From assembly GCF_053078305.1 (NCBI RefSeq), contig NZ_CP166879.1: DNA of 64,000 nucleotides, one strand, 5' to 3'. The stretch's first letter is position 1. Every line of letters starts with the position of its first letter. Below, piece by piece: positions 3,580-39,130 of the stretch. The translations under genes and the position numbers were made by a program. The notes beneath the pieces were generated by a model that saw nothing but the letters and a program-made list of their open reading frames with translations, was not told the origin of the DNA and did not search any database.

Positions 3580-5772
3580 ATGTCCGATAGCAAACCATGG
3601 GGAGCTACGCCTGATGAGTGGTTTCATTTCGACCTGGTATTGGGGAGAACTGATCATCTTCTCCCAGTTGTATGTAACCCCGGTGCGACCATATCCCCTG
3701 ATAGTAAACTGAAAGCGCTGGGTAAGACGCCAAGTCGCTATAACCGGGACCGCCAGGTCACCGGTATTGCTCAATGGACCGGGTATGTTGTTACTGAGCA
3801 TGATTTTGCCCGCTGGTCGAATGAACCGGATTATGGCATCTGCGTGCGTACAGGCCATGGCTGGCTGGCGCTGGACGGCGATAGCGAAGATGAAGACATT
3901 CAGGCAGATATTCGCAAAACGCTTGTGCAACTTCTGGGGGAGTTGCCGCCGCGACGCTGGCGAGCAAACAGTAATAAGTGTCTGTATCTGCTGGCCGTTG
4001 ATGGTGATTTCCGTAAGCGTATCCATCGCCTGGCGGGGGATATGGGCATTATCGAGTTGCTGGCGAACGGGCAGCAGTTCGTTGCCTGTGGTACGCACAG
4101 CAGCGGCGCGCGTATTGAATGGGACGGTGGTTTGCCGGATGAACCTCCGGCTATTACTGGTGAGCAGCTTGAAACGCTGTGGCAGCGCCTGGCTGAACAA
4201 CTCCCTGTGTCGGTAACCACCGAAGCGGGCAACACGAAGATGCGCGACCGATCAGCATTCACGCCCGGCGCGACGGATGATACAGCTGAATATCTTGATG
4301 CCAATGGCTGGACGCTGCTGGATGGCGCAAATGGTGAACGATATATCCGCTGTCCGTTTGAAGACGGCCACAGTAGCGGGGGCGATCCAACAAGCACAGC
4401 TTATTTTCCTGCGGGAACCGCGGGCTTTGAGCAGGGGCATTTTAAATGCCTGCATGCCAGTTGTGCGCATCGTGATGACGGAGATTTCCTTAATGCCATC
4501 GGGATCCGCAACGACGATTTCGAAGATCTGACCAGCACCGAAGTGGCGGAACCTTTACCGCTGCCTGCTTTCGAGCGTGATAAATGGGGGCGTATCGAGG
4601 CAACCATCAGCAACGCAGCCAAAGCAGTAGTACGCCCTGATTTTGTGGACATCGATATTCGCTTTGACCAGTTCCGCGACGAAATCATGTTTGCCTCTGC
4701 AGGATCCGGACAATGGCGAGCATTCACCGATGCGGATTATGCGCGCCTGCGCATCACGATGGAAAAGCGGGGATTTAAACCTGTTGGTCGTGAACTTATT
4801 CGCGATGTGGTGTTACTTGCAGCCGATGAACAACCATTCGATTCAGCGATTACCTGGCTGAACGGGCTGGAGTGGGATGGCGTGCCGCGCATCGAATGTT
4901 TCTACCATACGCACTTCGGTACAGCCGACACGCCTTATACCCGTGCGGTGTCTATGTACATGTGGACCGCGTTGGCGGGGCGAGTACTGGAGCCAGGCAT
5001 CAAAGCGGATATGGTGCCGATCCTCGTTGGTCCGCAGGGCTGCGGTAAGTCTTCCGGAGTGGAGGCACTGAGCCCTGATCCTGCGTTTTTTACTGAAATC
5101 TCTTTTGCCGAAAAAGACGATGATCTCGCTCGAAAAATGCGTGGTCGGCTGGTGGCAGAGATTGGTGAACTGCGCGGACTTAATACCAAAGAGCTGGAGT
5201 CAATCAAAGCGTTTGTGACGCGTACTCACGAAAACTGGATCCCGAAATACCGGGAGTTCGCCACCCAGTTTCCTCGTCGCCTGGTGTTCGTTGGTACCAC
5301 CAATGAGGACGAATTCCTTGCGGACAAGACTGGTAACCGTCGCTGGCTCCCCGTGGAAGTGTCGAAAGTCGACGTGAAAGCGATAAAAAGAGATCTCCTT
5401 TTACTTTGGGCTGAGGCTCGTGAGGTGTTTCAGCGTCTGGGGGGTATCCAGTTCCGTGAGGCTGAACAACTGGCAGCGAGTGTCCATGAACAGTACACCA
5501 TCAAGGATGCTTGGCTTGAAACGGTAGAGAAATGGCTCGACACGCCAGACCTGATGACTAATGAACTTCCGCGAAATTGCGAATTTTTACGCGCAAGTGA
5601 TGTTTTGCGTGATGCGATTGGGCTAAATCCTGACCGCATCGGAAAACGCGAAGAAATGCGAATTAGTAATGTTTTGCAAAATTGCGGGTATAAGCGTGTC
5701 CAAAGGCGAATTGGGGGGAAAATGACTCGAATTTTTGAGGCGGTGTCCCAACCTGTACCAGCCTCAAAATAG
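3580..5772 (+). CDS. Phage replication primase-helicase (N-terminal primase-polymerase-like region, C-terminal P4/VirE-type NTPase)
   Basis: 730 aa; Walker A GPQGCGKSS; family assignment from recall. Confidence 0.75.
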   Translation: MSDSKPWGATPDEWFHFDLVLGRTDHLLPVVCNPGATISPDSKLKALGKTPSRYNRDRQVTGIAQWTGYVVTEHDFARWSNEPDYGICVRTGHGWLALDGDSEDEDIQADIRKTLVQLLGELPPRRWRANSNKCLYLLAVDGDFRKRIHRLAGDMGIIELLANGQQFVACGTHSSGARIEWDGGLPDEPPAITGEQLETLWQRLAEQLPVSVTTEAGNTKMRDRSAFTPGATDDTAEYLDANGWTLLDGANGERYIRCPFEDGHSSGGDPTSTAYFPAGTAGFEQGHFKCLHASCAHRDDGDFLNAIGIRNDDFEDLTSTEVAEPLPLPAFERDKWGRIEATISNAAKAVVRPDFVDIDIRFDQFRDEIMFASAGSGQWRAFTDADYARLRITMEKRGFKPVGRELIRDVVLLAADEQPFDSAITWLNGLEWDGVPRIECFYHTHFGTADTPYTRAVSMYMWTALAGRVLEPGIKADMVPILVGPQGCGKSSGVEALSPDPAFFTEISFAEKDDDLARKMRGRLVAEIGELRGLNTKELESIKAFVTRTHENWIPKYREFATQFPRRLVFVGTTNEDEFLADKTGNRRWLPVEVSKVDVKAIKRDLLLLWAEAREVFQRLGGIQFREAEQLAASVHEQYTIKDAWLETVEKWLDTPDLMTNELPRNCEFLRASDVLRDAIGLNPDRIGKREEMRISNVLQNCGYKRVQRRIGGKMTRIFEAVSQPVPASK

Positions 5773-7167: not shown

Positions 7168-7193
7168 AGGTTCGCTATGGCGAACTTTTTTTT
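7168..7193 (+). terminator. Rho-independent terminator (GTTCGC-TATG-GCGAAC then T8); possible tR'-like terminator ahead of the lysis genes
   Basis: Perfect 6-bp stem and 8 T read directly; tR' role is inference by analogy with lambda. Confidence 0.55.
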
Positions 7194-9260: not shown

Positions 9261-10883
9261 ATGCCGTTACCATTTCACTTCGATTTTAAACATCCTGATT
9301 ACCAGATGGTTTTTGAATGGCGGATGGAACGCTTACAGCGCATTCGCCAGAACCCTGAAATATTGCCCGTATTGAAGCAGTTTTACCGAACCAATCCGGC
9401 TCAGTTCATCATCGACTGGGGCATGACAACGGACCCGCGTAATATTGATTATGGCCTGCCGGTGACCATTCCGTTTTTACTCTTCCCTAAGCAGGAGGAG
9501 TGGATCCACTGGATTATGGAACGCTGGGGCAATCGGGAGAATGGTATTACCGAAAAATCCCGTGAAATGGGGCTCAGTTGGACCGCGATCGGACTGGCCT
9601 GCTCGCTTTGTCTCTTCAACAAAGAAATGGTTATCGGTTTCGGCTCCCGTAAAGAGGAATACGTCGACAGCACCGGTGACCCGAAAGCATTGTTCTGGAA
9701 GGCACGCAAGTTCGTGGAAACGCTACCTGTAGAGTTTCGCGGTTCGTGGAGCGAGAAGAAGCACGCGCCATATATGCGTGTTGAGTTTCCTGAAACTGGT
9801 GCCGTTATCAAAGGCGAGGCTGGCGATAATATTGGTCGTGGTGACCGTACCACGCTTTATCTGGTTGATGAGGCTGCATTCCTTCAGCGTCCTCTGCTGA
9901 TTGATGCGGCGTTGTCACAAACGACGCGTTGCCGTATCGACCTGAGTTCAGTTAACGGCATGGCTAACCCGTTCGCTCAGAAGCGTCATGGCGGGAAGAT
10001 ACCGGTATTCACATTCCACTGGCGGGATGATCCTCGCAAGGATGAAGAGTGGTATCGCAGGGAATGCGAGAAAATCGATAATCCGGTGGTGGTGGCACAG
10101 GAACTTGATCTGAACTACAGCGCATCAGCGGAAGGCGTTCTGATTCCATCCGAATGGGTACAGGCTGCCGTTGATGCGCATATCAAACTGGGTATCCAGC
10201 CAACAGGCAAACGACTTGGCGCGATGGATGTCGCCGACGAAGGCAGGGACAAAAATGCCTTTTCCACCCGTCATGGCTTCCTCCTGGAAAATGTGCGGGA
10301 ATGGTCCGGTGTGGGCAGCGACATTTATCAGTCCGTCGAGAAGGTTTTCGGCTTTTGCGAACAGGACAACCTCGAAGAGTTTCGCTTTGACGAGGACGGG
10401 CTGGGCGCTGGCGTTCGCGGCGATGCACGCGCTATCAACGAACTGCGTAACGCTGCGCGTCGACCGTCAATACTTGCCACACCGTTTCGAGGTAGTGGCG
10501 CGGTATTTGATCCGGATGATGAAGCTGTTCGCGGGGACAACGGGCAAGCCGCGCGTCTGAACAAGGACTTCTTCGCTAACGCCAAAGCCCAGAGCTGGTG
10601 GCGGTTACGTAAACTTTTTCAGAATACCTGGCGCGCCGTGGTTGAAGGTATGGCTTACAACCCGGACGAAATCATCTCAATCAGCAGTAGCATGGCACTC
10701 AAAGATCAACTCATCATCGAGCTTTCGCAGCCGACCTATTCCATTAATGGTGTGGGAAAAATCGTTATTGATAAACAGCCTGATGGGACCCGGTCGCCAA
10801 ATCTTGCCGACTCGGTGATGATCAACTATGCCCCAATGAATTCAGCCCTGAACATCTGGGAGTTGCTAGGGAGACAGGCCTGA
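9261..10883 (+). CDS. Terminase large subunit
   Basis: 540 aa; position and size; followed by portal. Confidence 0.8.
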
Positions 10884-12349
10884 TGGCACGAAACAAACAA
10901 GCCCTGCGGCGAACTGCGCAGGCCACAGCTGATGGTTATGAGAATTTTATCGCCCGCGTAGGGATGCAGACACCTAACCAGCACTCAGCATCCACCTACC
11001 GGGCTAATTTCACCAGTCGTAACCGCATGCTGGTGGAATGGTCCTATCGTTCTTCCTGGATCATCGGCGAAGCAGTCGATGCTATCCCGGATGATATGAC
11101 CCGCAAAGGCATTCGCATCACTTCGGAAATTGATGCAAAAGATCGTGGCATTCTCGAATCACAACTGGATGAGTTGCAAATCTGGGATGCGCTGAATGAC
11201 GTGCTGAAATGGTCGCGCCTCTACGGCGGCGCGGTGGGTTTCATCATGATTGAGGGGCAGGCACCAATGACCCCGCTGCGACCCGAAACCATCGGTAAGG
11301 GCAAGTTTAAGGGGATTCTCCCGCTCGACCGCTGGATGATTGACCCGGTACTGACCCGCCGCATTAAAGATATGGGGCCGGACCTGGGTAAACCTGAGTT
11401 TTATGATGTGGTGACCACAGCAACGGGAATTCCTGCCTGGCGCATTCATCACAGTCGCCTGATTCGCTTTGATGGCGTCACGCTGCCATTTCAGCAGAAG
11501 ATGACCGAGAACGAATGGGGAATGTCGGTTGTAGAGCGTATCTGGGATCGTCTTACCGCGTTCGACAGCGCTACTGTCGGTGCGGCGCAGCTGGTCTACA
11601 AGGCGCATTTGCGTACCTACAGCGTGGAGAAGCTACGCGAGCTTATCGCACTTGGTGGTCCTGCGTATGAAGCGTTGCTGAAGAATATTGACCTGATTCG
11701 ACAGTTCCAGAGCAATGAAGGCATGACTCTCATGGACTCGCGGGATAAGTTTGAAACCCATCAGTACAGCTTCAGTGGTCTGGATGACATCCTTTCACAG
11801 TTTGCAGAACAGATTAGTGGAGCTGTTGGTATCCCACTGGTGCGGTTGTTCGGACAGTCCCCGAAGGGATTTTCTACCGGCGATGCAGACCTTGCCAACT
11901 ATTACGACCGGGTAAGTTCGTTGCAGGAGAGGCGTTTACGTCTTCCGGTGCGGCGGATACTGGACATCATGCATCGTTCGGAACTTGGCAAGCCGCTCCC
12001 GGATGATTTCACATTTGAGTTTAACCCGCTCTGGCAAATGTCTGATGTCGATCGTTCAACGGTGGCATTAAATACCACCAACGCAATCAGTACAGCGCTG
12101 GGTGATGGTCTGATGACACTGAAAGCTGCTATGACTGATTTGCGCGAAAATTCTGACGTAACCGGCATCGGGGCATCCATTACCGACGAGGACATCGAGA
12201 ATGCCGAAGACGAAGCGCCGCCCGGCATCGGCGAACCTGATGACGAACCGCAGGAACCGTCAGGCGGAAATCCGCTATCGAACCAGCCTACGCAGGATAG
12301 CGCGGGCGGTCGGGGACATCGTAAATGGTCGCTACGATGGTTCAAATGA
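10883..12349 (+). CDS. Portal protein
   Basis: 488 aa with acidic low-complexity C-terminus; follows terminase. Confidence 0.75.
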   Translation: MARNKQALRRTAQATADGYENFIARVGMQTPNQHSASTYRANFTSRNRMLVEWSYRSSWIIGEAVDAIPDDMTRKGIRITSEIDAKDRGILESQLDELQIWDALNDVLKWSRLYGGAVGFIMIEGQAPMTPLRPETIGKGKFKGILPLDRWMIDPVLTRRIKDMGPDLGKPEFYDVVTTATGIPAWRIHHSRLIRFDGVTLPFQQKMTENEWGMSVVERIWDRLTAFDSATVGAAQLVYKAHLRTYSVEKLRELIALGGPAYEALLKNIDLIRQFQSNEGMTLMDSRDKFETHQYSFSGLDDILSQFAEQISGAVGIPLVRLFGQSPKGFSTGDADLANYYDRVSSLQERRLRLPVRRILDIMHRSELGKPLPDDFTFEFNPLWQMSDVDRSTVALNTTNAISTALGDGLMTLKAAMTDLRENSDVTGIGASITDEDIENAEDEAPPGIGEPDDEPQEPSGGNPLSNQPTQDSAGGRGHRKWSLRWFK

Positions 12350-25608: not shown

Positions 25609-25961
25609 TGCGATACAGACGTGAAGACGCCGATGGCGATTACACCTTTGGCAGCGGTGATGACACCTGGCTGATTAACTCACCGGAGGCCGTGGCGCAG
25701 GCGGTAAAAACGCGATTCGAATTGTGGTATGGGCAATGGTTTCTCGACACCACCGAGGGGACTCCGTGGATCCAGTCCGTACTCGGTAAGCAGAAGCCGG
25801 AAACCTACAACCTGGCGATCCGTAAGCGCATCCTCGAAACGCGGGGCGTTAAATCAATCCTCTCTTTCAATACGACGGTGGATACCACGACCCGACGTGT
25901 CATGTTTTCCGCTGAAATCGACACTCTTTATGGAATAACGACTGTTACATCGGAGGCGTAA
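25608..25961 (+). CDS. Baseplate protein (gpW-like)
   Basis: 117 aa; gene order. Confidence 0.55.
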   Translation: MRYRREDADGDYTFGSGDDTWLINSPEAVAQAVKTRFELWYGQWFLDTTEGTPWIQSVLGKQKPETYNLAIRKRILETRGVKSILSFNTTVDTTTRRVMFSAEIDTLYGITTVTSEA

Positions 25962-27160
25962 TGGCTCTGAACCTTGATTCTCTCGGTTTATCTGCAAAGG
26001 TAACCGCGGAGGGGATCAGTGCGCCTGATTATCAGACGATACTCAGCACCCTGATTAGCTATTTTCAGCAGATTTATGGCAGTGATGCCTACCTCGAACC
26101 GGACAGCAAAGACGGCCAGATGGTGGCTCTGATGGCGCTGGCGATTCATGATGCCAATAATATGGCGATAACTGTCTACAACTGTTTTTCACCGGCAACC
26201 GGCTATGGGGCTGCACTGACCAGTAACGTGAAAATAAATGGTATTTCACGTAAAGGCGCGACGAACTCTACGGTTGATTTGCTTCTTACAGGAACTGCCG
26301 GAACAACCATCATTAATGGCAGCGTGAAAGACAGTAATAATGTGATATGGCGTTTGCCTGCTTCAGTAGTGGTCGGCGTGGATGGTACAGTGATGGCGAC
26401 CGCAACATGTTCCGTCAGTGGTGCAGTGGCGGCGCTGGCTGGAACTATCACTGAAATTAATACGCCAACCCGTGGCTGGGTTTCGGTAACTAATCCTGCT
26501 GCGGCTACTGTGGGCACTCTGGCAGAAACTGACGCGGAGTTACGTATCCGTCAGTCGCAAAGTGTTGCGTTGCCATCAATAACCCCATTTGAAGCACTGG
26601 ATGGTGCTGTTTCTAATGTTACCGGTGTAACCCGCCACAAACTCTATGAAAACGATACTGGTTCGGAGGACGGTAACGGGTTACCGCCACACTCTGTTGC
26701 TGTAATTGTGGATGGCGGTGATGTGACGGATATTGCTCAGGCTATCAGAGGGAATAAAGGCCAGGGGACAGCCACTCACGGTACAACATCCGTTACGGTT
26801 CCGGATAAATACGGCAATCCCCATGTAATCAAATTCTCGCGTTCCAGTGATGTGCCTGTTTATGCCCGGATTAAATTAAAAGTTTTTACGGGTTATACCT
26901 CACAGATAGGGCAGCAGATCCAGCAGGCTATTTCCGACTATATCAATAGTTTGACGATTGGTGATTCGGTCCTTTTAAGTCGCATTTACTCACCGGCGAA
27001 TCTTGGCGTGGTGAGTGGCGGGAATGCACGCTATTACGATATTCAGGAACTGACGATTGGGAAATCCCCGGGGGCTTTGTCGTCATCAAACATTGATATC
27101 AGATACAACGAATCTGCGTCCTGTACCCCGGAAAATATCGTTATAACGGTGGAGTCATGA
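25961..27160 (+). CDS. Baseplate protein (gpJ-like)
   Basis: 399 aa; gene order. Confidence 0.55.
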   Translation: MALNLDSLGLSAKVTAEGISAPDYQTILSTLISYFQQIYGSDAYLEPDSKDGQMVALMALAIHDANNMAITVYNCFSPATGYGAALTSNVKINGISRKGATNSTVDLLLTGTAGTTIINGSVKDSNNVIWRLPASVVVGVDGTVMATATCSVSGAVAALAGTITEINTPTRGWVSVTNPAAATVGTLAETDAELRIRQSQSVALPSITPFEALDGAVSNVTGVTRHKLYENDTGSEDGNGLPPHSVAVIVDGGDVTDIAQAIRGNKGQGTATHGTTSVTVPDKYGNPHVIKFSRSSDVPVYARIKLKVFTGYTSQIGQQIQQAISDYINSLTIGDSVLLSRIYSPANLGVVSGGNARYYDIQELTIGKSPGALSSSNIDIRYNESASCTPENIVITVES

Positions 27161-30935: not shown

Positions 30936-31174
30936 ATGAACCGTTATAGAAAAAGGGGGGGGATCTTTGTGTTGCTGAACTTATGCAAAATTTTTTTGCA
31001 CCATAAATCCAACAACACATTCAATAACACATTGCTGTATCACTATGAAAATAAATGTGTTTTTATTTGATTTCACACATATCACAATTGATGCATTTTT
31101 TAGTGATTAACAGCGCCATAAGGAAACTCTCAAAACAACACAAACCGGGCGGGCATTATACGCGCATTCTTTAC

Positions 31175-32879: not shown

Positions 32880-34981
<2,102 letters not shown>

Positions 34982-35146
34982 TTAGTTAATTCTCTGTGTC
35001 GTGCGCGTCCCAGCTTGAAAAAACGTAATAATAGTGAAAGGTTTACTCATAAATGAGCGGCATTTTGCGTAAACCTGCGCCAGATGGCAACTTATTACAG
35101 CCATTGGCGGCACGCGTTGCTAATTCACGATGGTGATTTTATTTCC

Positions 35147-35185
35147 ACGCAAACGGTTTCGTCAGCGCATCAGATTCTTTATAAT
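35147..35185 (+). promoter_or_regulatory. purL promoter region: PurR box ACGCAAACGGTTTCGT (35147-35162) and -10 TATAAT (35180-35185)
   Basis: 16-bp match to recalled PurR operator consensus; consensus -10 read directly. Confidence 0.6.
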
Positions 35186-35242
35186 GACGCCCGTTTCCCC
35201 CCCCCCCTTGGGTACACCGAAAGCTTAGAAGACGAGAGACTT

Positions 35243-38200
35243 ATGATGGAAATTCTGCGTGGTTCGCCTGCACTGTCGGCATTCCGAATCAACAAACTGC
35301 TGGCACGTTTTCAGGCTGCCAGGCTCCCGGTTCACAATATTTACGCCGAGTATGTCCATTTTGCTGACCTCAATGCGCCGTTAAACGATGATGAGCACGC
35401 ACAACTTGAACGCCTGCTGAAATATGGCCCGGCACTCGCCAGCCACGCCCCGCAAGGCAAACTCCTGCTGGTGACCCCGCGTCCTGGCACCATCTCTCCC
35501 TGGTCTTCGAAAGCGACCGATATTGCCCATAACTGCGGGCTACAACAGGTAAACCGCCTTGAGCGCGGCGTTGCTTACTATATAGAAGCCGGTACGCTGA
35601 CCAATGAACAATGGCAGCAGGTTACCGCTGAACTGCACGACCGCATGATGGAAACGGTCTTTTTTGCTTTAGATGATGCAGAGCAGTTGTTTGCCCACCA
35701 TCAACCGACTCCGGTTACCAGCGTTGATTTGCTGGGGCAGGGCCGTCAGGCGCTGATCGACGCTAACCTGCGTCTTGGCTTGGCTCTGGCGGAAGATGAA
35801 ATTGACTATCTGCAGGATGCTTTCACAAAGCTTGGTCGTAACCCGAACGACATCGAGCTGTATATGTTCGCTCAGGCGAACTCTGAGCACTGCCGCCACA
35901 AAATTTTTAATGCCGACTGGATTATCGACGGTGAACAGCAGCCGAAATCGCTGTTCAAGATGATCAAAAATACTTTCGAAACCACGCCAGATCACGTTCT
36001 CTCTGCTTATAAAGATAACGCCGCCGTAATGGAAGGTTCTGAAGTGGGCCGCTACTTTGCTGACCACGAAACGGGCCGCTACGATTTCCATCAGGAACCG
36101 GCGCATATTCTGATGAAAGTCGAAACTCACAACCACCCGACGGCGATTTCTCCGTGGCCGGGCGCGGCGACCGGTTCCGGCGGCGAAATTCGTGATGAAG
36201 GCGCCACCGGACGCGGCGCGAAGCCGAAAGCGGGTTTGGTTGGTTTCTCCGTTTCCAACCTGCGAATTCCTGGCTTCGAACAGCCGTGGGAAGAAGATTT
36301 CGGTAAGCCTGAGCGCATTGTCACCGCGCTGGACATCATGACCGAAGGCCCGCTGGGCGGCGCGGCGTTTAACAACGAATTTGGTCGTCCGGCACTGAAT
36401 GGCTACTTCCGTACTTATGAAGAAAAAGTGAACAGCCACAACGGCGAAGAGCTGCGCGGTTATCACAAACCGATCATGCTGGCGGGCGGGATCGGCAACA
36501 TTCGCGCCGATCACGTACAAAAAGGCGAGATCAACGTCGGTGCGAAACTGGTCGTTCTCGGCGGCCCGGCAATGAACATCGGTCTTGGCGGCGGAGCGGC
36601 GTCTTCCATGGCGTCAGGTCAGTCTGATGCCGACCTCGACTTTGCTTCCGTACAGCGCGACAACCCGGAGATGGAGCGTCGCTGCCAGGAAGTGATCGAC
36701 CGTTGCTGGCAGCTTGGTGATGCCAACCCAATCCTGTTTATCCACGACGTCGGCGCTGGCGGTCTTTCTAACGCGATGCCGGAACTGGTGAGCGACGGCG
36801 GGCGCGGCGGTAAATTTGAACTGCGCGATATTCTAAGCGACGAACCGGGCATGAGCCCGCTGGAAATCTGGTGTAACGAATCCCAGGAACGCTACGTGCT
36901 GGCGGTTGCTGCCGATCAATTACCGCTGTTTGACGAACTGTGTAAGCGTGAGCGCGCACCCTACGCGGTGATTGGTGAAGCGACCGAAGAACTGCATCTT
37001 TCTCTGCACGATCGTCATTTTGATAATCAGCCGATCGATCTGCCGCTGGACGTCCTGCTTGGTAAAACGCCGAAGATGACCCGCGATGTACAAACGCTGA
37101 AAGCGAAGGGCGATGCGCTGGTCCGTGAAGGGATCACCATTGCAGACGCGGTGAAACGCGTACTGCATCTGCCGACCGTGGCGGAGAAAACTTTCCTGGT
37201 GACCATCGGTGACCGCAGCGTAACCGGCATGGTGGCGCGCGATCAGATGGTGGGGCCGTGGCAGGTGCCGGTCGCTAACTGCGCTGTCACTACCGCCAGC
37301 CTCGACAGCTACTACGGTGAAGCGATGGCGATTGGCGAGCGTGCGCCGGTTGCGCTGCTGGATTTCGCCGCCTCTGCCCGTCTGGCGGTCGGTGAAGCGT
37401 TAACCAATATTGCCGCAACACAGATTGGCGATATCAAACGCATTAAACTTTCCGCCAACTGGATGGCGGCGGCAGGCCACCCTGGTGAAGATGCGGGCCT
37501 GTATGAAGCCGTTAAAGCCGTGGGCGAAGAGCTTTGTCCGGCGCTGGGCCTGACGATCCCGGTGGGTAAAGACTCTATGTCGATGAAAACCCGCTGGCAG
37601 GAAGGTAACGAAGAGCGCGAAATGACGTCGCCGCTGTCGCTGGTGATTTCTGCATTTGCCCGCGTGGAAGATGTACGTCACACCATCACGCCGCAGCTTT
37701 CTACCGAAGATAACGCACTGCTGCTGATTGATTTGGGCAAAGGCAATAACGCGCTGGGCGCAACGGCGCTGGCGCAGGTTTATCGTCAGCTTGGCGATAA
37801 ACCGGCAGATGTACGCGATGTCGCGCAACTGAAAGGCTTCTATGACGCGATTCAGGCGCTGGTTGCACAGCGTAAGCTGCTGGCGTATCACGACCGCTCT
37901 GATGGCGGCCTGCTGGTAACGCTGGCGGAAATGGCCTTTGCTGGTCATTGTGGCATTGACGCTGATATCGCCACTCTGGGTGACGATCGCCTGGCGGCGT
38001 TGTTTAACGAAGAACTGGGTGCGGTGATTCAGGTTCGTGCCGCTGACCGTGAAGCGGTCGAATCCGTACTGGCACAGCATGGGCTTGCTGATTGCGTCCA
38101 TTATGTTGGGCAGGCGGTTTCCGGTGACCGTTTTGTGATTACCGCCAATGGGCAGACTGTATTCAGCGAAAGCCGCACTACGTTGCGTGTCTGGTGGGCA

Positions 38201-39130
38201 GAAACTACCTGGCAGATGCAGCGCCTGCGTGACAACCCGGAGTGTGCCGACCAGGAGCACCAGGCGAAATCAAACGACGCCGATCCTGGCCTGAATGTGA
38301 AACTGTCGTTCGATATCAACGAAGATGTGGCAGCACCGTATATTGCCACTGGCGCACGTCCGAAAGTTGCCGTGCTGCGTGAGCAGGGTGTGAACTCGCA
38401 TGTTGAAATGGCGGCAGCTTTCCACCGTGCGGGCTTTGATGCTATCGACGTGCATATGAGCGACCTGCTGGCTGGACGCACGGGCCTGGAGGATTTCCAC
38501 GCCCTGGTCGCGTGCGGTGGTTTCTCCTACGGTGATGTGCTGGGTGCCGGTGAAGGTTGGGCGAAGTCTATCCTGTTCAATGACCGTGTACGCGATGAGT
38601 TTGCAACCTTCTTCCACCGTCCGCAAACGCTGGCGCTGGGGGTATGTAACGGTTGCCAGATGATGTCTAATCTGCGTGAACTGATCCCAGGTAGTGAGTT
38701 GTGGCCACGTTTTGTGCGCAATACCTCCGATCGCTTTGAAGCGCGTTTCAGCCTGGTTGAAGTGACCCAAAGCCCGTCGCTGCTGTTGCAGGGGATGGTG
38801 GGCTCGCAAATGCCGATTGCTGTCTCTCATGGTGAAGGGCGCGTGGAAGTGCGTGATGCGGCGCATCTGGCGGCACTGGAAAGCAAAGGGCTGGTGGCAC
38901 TGCGCTATGTCGATAACTTCGGCAAAGTCACTGAAACCTACCCGGCTAACCCGAACGGTTCTCCGAATGGTATTACGGCGGTCACGACTGAAAGCGGTCG
39001 AGTCACCATTATGATGCCGCATCCGGAACGTGTTTTCCGTACTGTCAGCAACTCCTGGCATCCGGAAAACTGGGGCGAAGATGGCCCGTGGATGCGTATT
39101 TTCCGCAATGCGCGTAAGCAGTTGGGGTAA
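35243..39130 (+). CDS. purL: Phosphoribosylformylglycinamidine synthase
   Basis: 1295 aa from [12 protein letters not shown]; unmistakable large PurL. Confidence 0.95.

Follow-up and report, generated by a model that had tools for sequence, protein, structure and literature searches.

A run of eleven cytosines lies a short distance ahead of purL in the 64,000-nt stretch of Escherichia coli DNA analysed here (the window, from contig NZ_CP166879.1 of RefSeq assembly GCF_053078305.1), and it raises the question of what so long a homopolymer means in the leader of a purine biosynthetic gene. The run could be a sequencing error, a passive product of replication, or a device that sets the expression of the gene. 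We favour, with a probability of about 0.7, the reading that C11 arose by expansion of a poly(C)/poly(G) repeat that is hypermutable by nature, and that this allele is near-neutral and not a switch.

The C11 tract and the purL promoter

Direct reading of the window gives exactly 11 C at positions 35197-35207, in the context TATAATGACGCCCGTTT-CCCCCCCCCCC-TTGGGTACACC, just as an earlier note made from the sequence alone had described. That note had also placed the tract between the -10 element and PurR box on one side and the start of purL on the other, and this placement is correct, with TATAAT at 35180-35185 and the purL ATG at 35243. In full, the tract stands in the order TATAAT-GACGCCC-G-TTT-CCCCCCCCCCC-TTGGGTACACCGAAAGCTTAGAAGACGAGAGACTT-ATGATGG. 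It is the sole homopolymer of at least 9 bases in the 64 kb window, the runners-up being two runs of 8 bases each, G8 at 30955-30962 and T8 at 7186-7193. As the expected number of C or G runs of 11 or more is only 0.038 per 64 kb under independent base composition, the length of the tract is not explained by chance composition. The features of the region are as follows.

33425..34981, minus strand: mltF, the divergent neighbour, from the list of open reading frames and the annotation of homologous regions
35147..35162, plus strand: PurR operator, or pur box, ACGCAAACGGTTTCGT; it overlaps the -35 region of the purL promoter
35180..35185, plus strand: -10 hexamer TATAAT, a perfect consensus, read directly
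35186..35192, plus strand: GC-rich discriminator GACGCCC, read directly
35193..35196, plus strand: G35193, the predicted transcription start, and the TTT after it, which form the 5' part of a conserved pyrimidine block
35197..35207, plus strand: C11 homopolymer, a variable mononucleotide repeat with the allele series C5-C10, at predicted +5 to +15 of the purL mRNA
35208..35242, plus strand: remaining purL leader with a Shine-Dalgarno-like GAGAG at 35234-35238, invariant in seven aligned E. coli sequences
35243..39130, plus strand: purL coding sequence, phosphoribosylformylglycinamidine synthase, 1295 aa, from the open reading frame coordinates and the RefSeq annotation of homologous regions

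The pur box ACGCAAACGGTTTCGT is exactly the reverse complement of ACGAAACCGTTTGCGT, which Cho et al. 2011 (PMC3159470) give as the purL PurR site. Its core, GCAAACGGTT[T/A]CGT, stands a constant 17 bp upstream of the -10 hexamer in all 66 readable Enterobacterales loci, and with this spacing fixed the hexamer itself reads TATAAT in 64 of them and TATACT in the other 2. A generic promoter scan did not call the purL promoter because its -35 element is poor and is replaced by the PurR box; the promoter was therefore assigned from the invariant geometry of box, 17 bp and TATAAT. By its sequence, it is a PurR-repressed, sigma-70 promoter of the textbook pur type. Like other PurR-repressed pur promoters (PMC3159470), it has a 16-bp pur box over the -35 region and a GC-rich discriminator; in itself it is no different from them, and the homopolymer comes on top, as a peculiarity of purL. 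Across species, C or G predominates at positions 3-7 after the -10 hexamer, and the K-12 purF, purMN, purHD and guaBA promoters likewise have GC-rich discriminators; we infer at most a tie between the discriminator and stringent control.

The geometry of the -10 hexamer puts the predicted +1 at G35193, and it is on account of this start site that the tract is counted as transcribed; the SMRT-Cappable-seq data hold no purL entry. Downstream, the Shine-Dalgarno region AGACGAGAGA is conserved across Enterobacterales, and the ATG at 35243 is the RefSeq start of purL in K-12 and five other strains. On the minus strand, the promoter-like sites of mltF, at 35165-35136 and 35090-35062, both lie upstream of the tract.

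With a tract of C11, C8 or C5, purL can be read in frame from an intergenic ATG at 35084, which gives a mechanical open reading frame of 1348 aa; with the C7 of K-12, that ATG falls out of the purL frame. As this ATG lies upstream of the promoter, its use is very unlikely, and gene callers could mis-extend purL to 35084 in genomes with some of the tract alleles.

Positions 1-31071 of the window are a tailed prophage that neither K-12 nor the closest strain, D8, carries; homology to D8 begins only at 31072, beside yfhL. Its genes include those for a VapE-like primase/helicase (3580-5772), a portal protein (10883-12349) and a baseplate J protein (25961-27160). The G8 run at 30955-30962 is near the prophage junction, and no tRNA gene was found anywhere in the 64 kb window.

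Length alleles of the tract in E. coli

Of 5,426 complete E. coli genomes, 5,425 were matched by a 201-nt query spanning the site, none of them at 100%; the top match, at 99.5%, was strain D8 with C10. Alleles were counted as exact matches to a 35-nt flank, Cn and a second 35-nt flank. The counts below, which leave out 31 of the 5,425 genomes, presumably on account of SNPs in the flanks, are counts of genomes that are not phylogenetically independent.

C5: 1 of 5,425 complete E. coli genomes
C6: 610 of 5,425
C7: 4459 of 5,425, including K-12 MG1655
C8: 253 of 5,425
C9: 64 of 5,425
C10: 7 of 5,425
C11 or longer: 0 of 5,425

One length, C7, is thus common to 82% of the genomes. C9 and C10 are present in genomes that were finished early (e.g., APEC O1, S88, IHE3034, SE11 and SMS-3-5). 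In an independent sample, the first 120 metagenome contigs with the locus, the tract was C6 in 5, C7 in 97, C8 in 15 and C9 in 3, and a scan of the whole metagenome collection gave no allele of C10 or longer. When seven strains were aligned, the 143 nt upstream of the ATG were identical throughout, with the exception of the tract, whose length was C11 in the window, C10 in D8 and in APEC O1, C9 in SE11, C8 in EC69, C7 in K-12 MG1655 and C6 in 2017C-4109.

The earlier note had called the tract unusually long for E. coli, had proposed a comparison with K-12 MG1655 and other isolates, and had allowed that an identical tract in every genome would speak against its view. The comparison gives C7 for K-12, lengths from C5 to C10 among the 5,425 complete genomes, none of which exceeds C10, and in the window the longest allele seen. 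C11 is therefore the longest allele yet, in the upper tail, of a length-variable repeat.

How fast the length changes can be seen from nearly identical genomes. MG1655 (C7) and ER1709 (C6) differ over 30 kb by 1 SNP and by a single gap, which is the tract. ER1709 is K-12-like, and its C6 is either a recent slippage in a laboratory lineage or a consensus error in the assembly (position about 15036). Among APEC O1 (C10), S88 (C9), IHE3034 (C9) and MS7163 (C8), 30 kb hold 1-5 SNPs in each pairwise comparison, and again the sole gap is the tract. Altogether, near-clonal pairs with 1-5 SNPs per 30 kb differ in tract length in 5 of 7 cases and show no other indel, so that the tract changes about as often as the 30,000 surrounding bases together gain a few substitutions. 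Being the only indel among near-clonal genomes marks the locus as a slippage-prone mononucleotide repeat, and the proneness to slipped-strand variation that the earlier note had supposed is visible as slippage-like, single-base steps between almost identical genomes.

This behaviour agrees with what has been reported for E. coli, in which indel rates grow exponentially with the length of a homopolymer and G.C runs of 8 bp count as hot spots (PMC8510543). A hypermutable repeat is expected to be an uninterrupted run of about 7 nt or more, to have alleles that differ by single units between conserved flanks, and to change much faster than point substitutions accumulate; the tract is C11 in the window and C7 in K-12, forms a series from C5 to C10 in the 5,425 genomes, and outpaces substitution in the near-clonal pairs. 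Judged by every criterion that can be tested on sequence, it is a hypermutable mononucleotide repeat.

That mononucleotide repeats in the non-coding DNA of E. coli can be polymorphic is known already, and Gur-Arie et al. 2000 and Diamant et al. 2004 reportedly described such repeats and their use for strain typing. The purL tract resembles these typing repeats in being an uninterrupted intergenic homopolymer with invariant flanks and single-base alleles, and in varying between closely related strains; the mechanism that we propose for it, replication slippage countered by mismatch repair, would be shared as well. What sets the window apart is that its C11 is longer than any allele of the purL tract in 5,425 complete genomes. 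Slipped-strand mispairing during replication would change the length in single-base steps, and because the rate of slippage should climb steeply with tract length, lineages with C9 or C10 would readily yield C11. The haplotypes nearest to the window over mltF-purL are D8 with C10 (99.6% identity), Res13-Sevr with C9 and OZ282453 with C9; as these are already long, C11 looks like one further step in a long-tract lineage.

An error of assembly or base calling is the alternative that survives best. Under this explanation the locus is truly variable, and the true length in the window is shorter, e.g., C10 or C9. Consensus sequences from 454, PacBio and nanopore reads have their classic errors in long homopolymers, and whatever the sequencing platform, an 11-mer is where error is most likely. 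That C11 occurs in none of the 5,425 complete genomes, and that the metagenome collection has nothing of C10 or longer, would also fit a miscall. Against it, the alignment of the window with D8, the closest haplotype, contains 172 SNPs over 28,059 nt and a single gap, so that the tract is the sole indel in 28 kb, and the six other 7-base runs in the aligned stretch all agree. With one gap and six concordant runs, the window shows no signature of a general homopolymer error. Furthermore, C9 and C10 also occur in the early finished genomes, and from the series of 4459, 253, 64 and 7 genomes one would expect C11 in roughly one of several thousand genomes. Some of the single-base differences between public assemblies may be assembly errors. 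For the window, we consider a miscall of one base or so at C11 unlikely, although its chance is well above negligible, and the C11 allele is probably genuine and nearly neutral.

A conserved block after the -10 hexamer

The tract is the 3' part of a block, purine-T(3-4)-C(2-7), that follows the GC-rich discriminator and is conserved in Enterobacterales. The purL upstream regions came from 80 species, and conservation was analysed in the Enterobacterales subset, 64 species with the block. In these species the 8th base after the -10 hexamer is G in 53, each of the three T positions after that G is kept in 57-64, and two C positions are invariant (64/64). By these counts, the block is as conserved as the -10 hexamer itself. 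It is located at 35186-35215 in the window and about 60-110 nt before the purL ATG in relatives. The block reads T3C7 in E. coli and E. albertii and T4C6 in Enterobacter, from which we simply infer that in the Escherichia lineage a T-to-C change made the C-run long enough to be prone to slippage.

Outside the order the block is missing, as in purL promoters of the Vibrio, Shewanella and Pseudoalteromonas types. Nor was it found at the other K-12 pur promoters, with which purL shares only the GC-rich discriminator; a regulon-wide motif of the start region is therefore out, the T/C block being purL-specific among K-12 pur promoters. At the K-12 pur regulon loci (cvpA-purF, purMN, purC, purHD, guaBA and purEK), the discriminators are GCGCCCC, TGCGCCG, GCGGGCG, GCCGCGG and GACGCCC, and homopolymer runs stand at the predicted start in two other promoters, those of purMN (AATTTTATTTTTC) and purHD (GAAAAATAAGG). 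Such discriminators and runs would be compatible with stringent control and possibly with slippage at the start site. Many genera have in addition a GC-rich inverted repeat of about 10-25 nt (e.g., GCGCC..GGCGC or GCGTC..GACGC) between the pyrimidine block and AGACGAGAGA; this repeat, which may form a hairpin in the leader, is missing from E. coli, E. albertii and some Citrobacter.

The conservation of the T/C block suggests a constraint on this part of the leader, and tract length could matter quantitatively. One explanation built on this is that the conserved start, purine-U(3-4)-C(n), is an element that senses nucleotides or binds a factor, and that the length of the C-run modulates purL output in a quantitative manner. 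The candidates include UTP-dependent reiterative transcription as at carAB P1, in which escape would need repeated addition of CTP, a pyrimidine-rich contact for S1 or Rho, and an effect on promoter escape. Regions of UTP-dependent reiterative transcription have been described at carAB P1, pyrBI, codBA and upp, three or more identical bases at +1 or directly behind it are enough for the process, and carAB P1, which starts with GUUUGC, is controlled by UTP-dependent stuttering (PMC6245113; PMC8812562).

The predicted 5' end of the purL transcript, G-UUU-C, resembles that of carAB P1. The purL G-UUU comes after a strong -10 hexamer and a 7-nt discriminator, and its T-run (TTT at 35194-35196) is nearly invariant across Enterobacterales. 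The conserved G35193 directly ahead of the T-run stands 8 nt downstream of the -10 hexamer, the geometry from which the start was predicted. Together with the conservation of the G, the three T and the two C positions in the 64 species, this likeness is what favours a length-sensitive start region. In contrast to carAB P1, the T-run of purL leads into a C-run instead of a G, variation is in the C-run rather than the T-run, and the gene serves purine, not pyrimidine, biosynthesis, so that pyrimidine sensing would have no obvious logic here. The start site on which the likeness depends is itself placed by the geometry of the -10 hexamer, and the block is not common to other K-12 pur promoters. 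The C-run also has 2 to 7 bases in different species and 5 to 11 in different E. coli genomes; such a spread goes against a tight length requirement and argues that the exact length is not critical. A search of the literature gave no report of reiterative-type or nucleotide-sensing control of purL.

Taken together, modulation of purL output by the length of the C-run seems improbable. The fullest version of the idea, in which the start block would be a transcription-factor-independent control element and the alleles from C5 to C11 heritable, quickly mutating quantitative settings of purine biosynthetic capacity, is decidedly improbable. If there were such an element, its form would most likely be UTP/CTP-sensitive reiterative transcription or control of promoter escape, as at carAB P1, and the longer alleles would then be enriched in some extraintestinal and avian pathogenic lineages.

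Tract length and purL expression

With C11 read as an expanded allele of a hypermutable repeat, the remaining question is what four additional bases would do to the gene. The tract is downstream of the -10 hexamer and the PurR box, 26 nt before the Shine-Dalgarno-like GAGAG and 35 nt before the ATG, and its length leaves unchanged the -35/-10 spacing, the position of the PurR operator and the spacing between the Shine-Dalgarno sequence and the AUG. The earlier note had suggested that the tract could alter the length or the structure of the leader. The length is altered by definition, but the predicted structure is not: the minimum free energy is -6.6 to -6.8 kcal/mol for C6, C7, C10 and C11 alike, and at each of these lengths the leader is less structured than its shuffled versions (-6.8 kcal/mol, z about +1.7). 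Tract length would thus alter only the length of an unstructured 5' UTR; with C11 this UTR should be four bases longer than in K-12, and the effect on purL expression should be nil to small. From the folding predictions and the unchanged spacings, near-neutrality of C11 is most likely.

Other functions of the leader were considered and set aside. A structured leader RNA or riboswitch is out in view of the weak fold (z=+1.7) and the search of Rfam at E<=10, which returned no leader family and only a meaningless 11-bit match inside purL. A terminator or attenuator is out, as the scan found no terminator-like site. A leader peptide or poly-proline upstream open reading frame across the C-run is out, as no start codon occurs from the predicted +1 up to the tract, and a Rho-loading (rut) site is unlikely, since the leader past the C-run is short and G-rich.

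The last explanation is that of a contingency (phase-variation) locus, in which changes of length would reversibly switch or strongly tune purL expression, after the model of the poly-G/C tracts in promoters of Neisseria, Haemophilus and Bordetella. Poly-C/G tracts of Bordetella pertussis are reported as phase-variable contingency loci (PMC1891110), and the purL poly-C resembles them in adjoining a promoter and in differing in length between isolates. The purL homopolymer is, moreover, highly polymorphic, differs even between near-clonal isolates, and has its longest alleles recurring in extraintestinal and avian pathogenic strains. Unlike the contingency tracts, however, it lies after the -10 hexamer and the PurR box and before the Shine-Dalgarno sequence, i.e., not between -35 and -10, not in an open reading frame and not between the Shine-Dalgarno sequence and the AUG, and at such a position no known on/off geometry applies. 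Since the spacings, the operator and the predicted folding are all unaffected by tract length, an on/off phase switch is unlikely. It also speaks against a switch that purL encodes a housekeeping biosynthetic enzyme, that one length, C7, dominates the population, and that the run in other Enterobacterales is only 2-7 C, with a mode of 5, which is too short to switch. We regard a contingency locus as highly improbable. A search of the literature for a purL homopolymer or the purL promoter found nothing relevant.

In practice, the purL leader tract is a fast-evolving length marker that could help fine-scale typing, and in E. coli genomics it will also be a source of spurious variants and of assemblies that disagree. 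Should the length of the tract, or the T/C block around it, affect purL output, there would be an extra, PurR-independent layer in the control of purine biosynthesis. A repeat would then be tuning a core metabolic gene quantitatively in nature, and such tuning would be relevant because growth in blood and urine is limited by purine synthesis.
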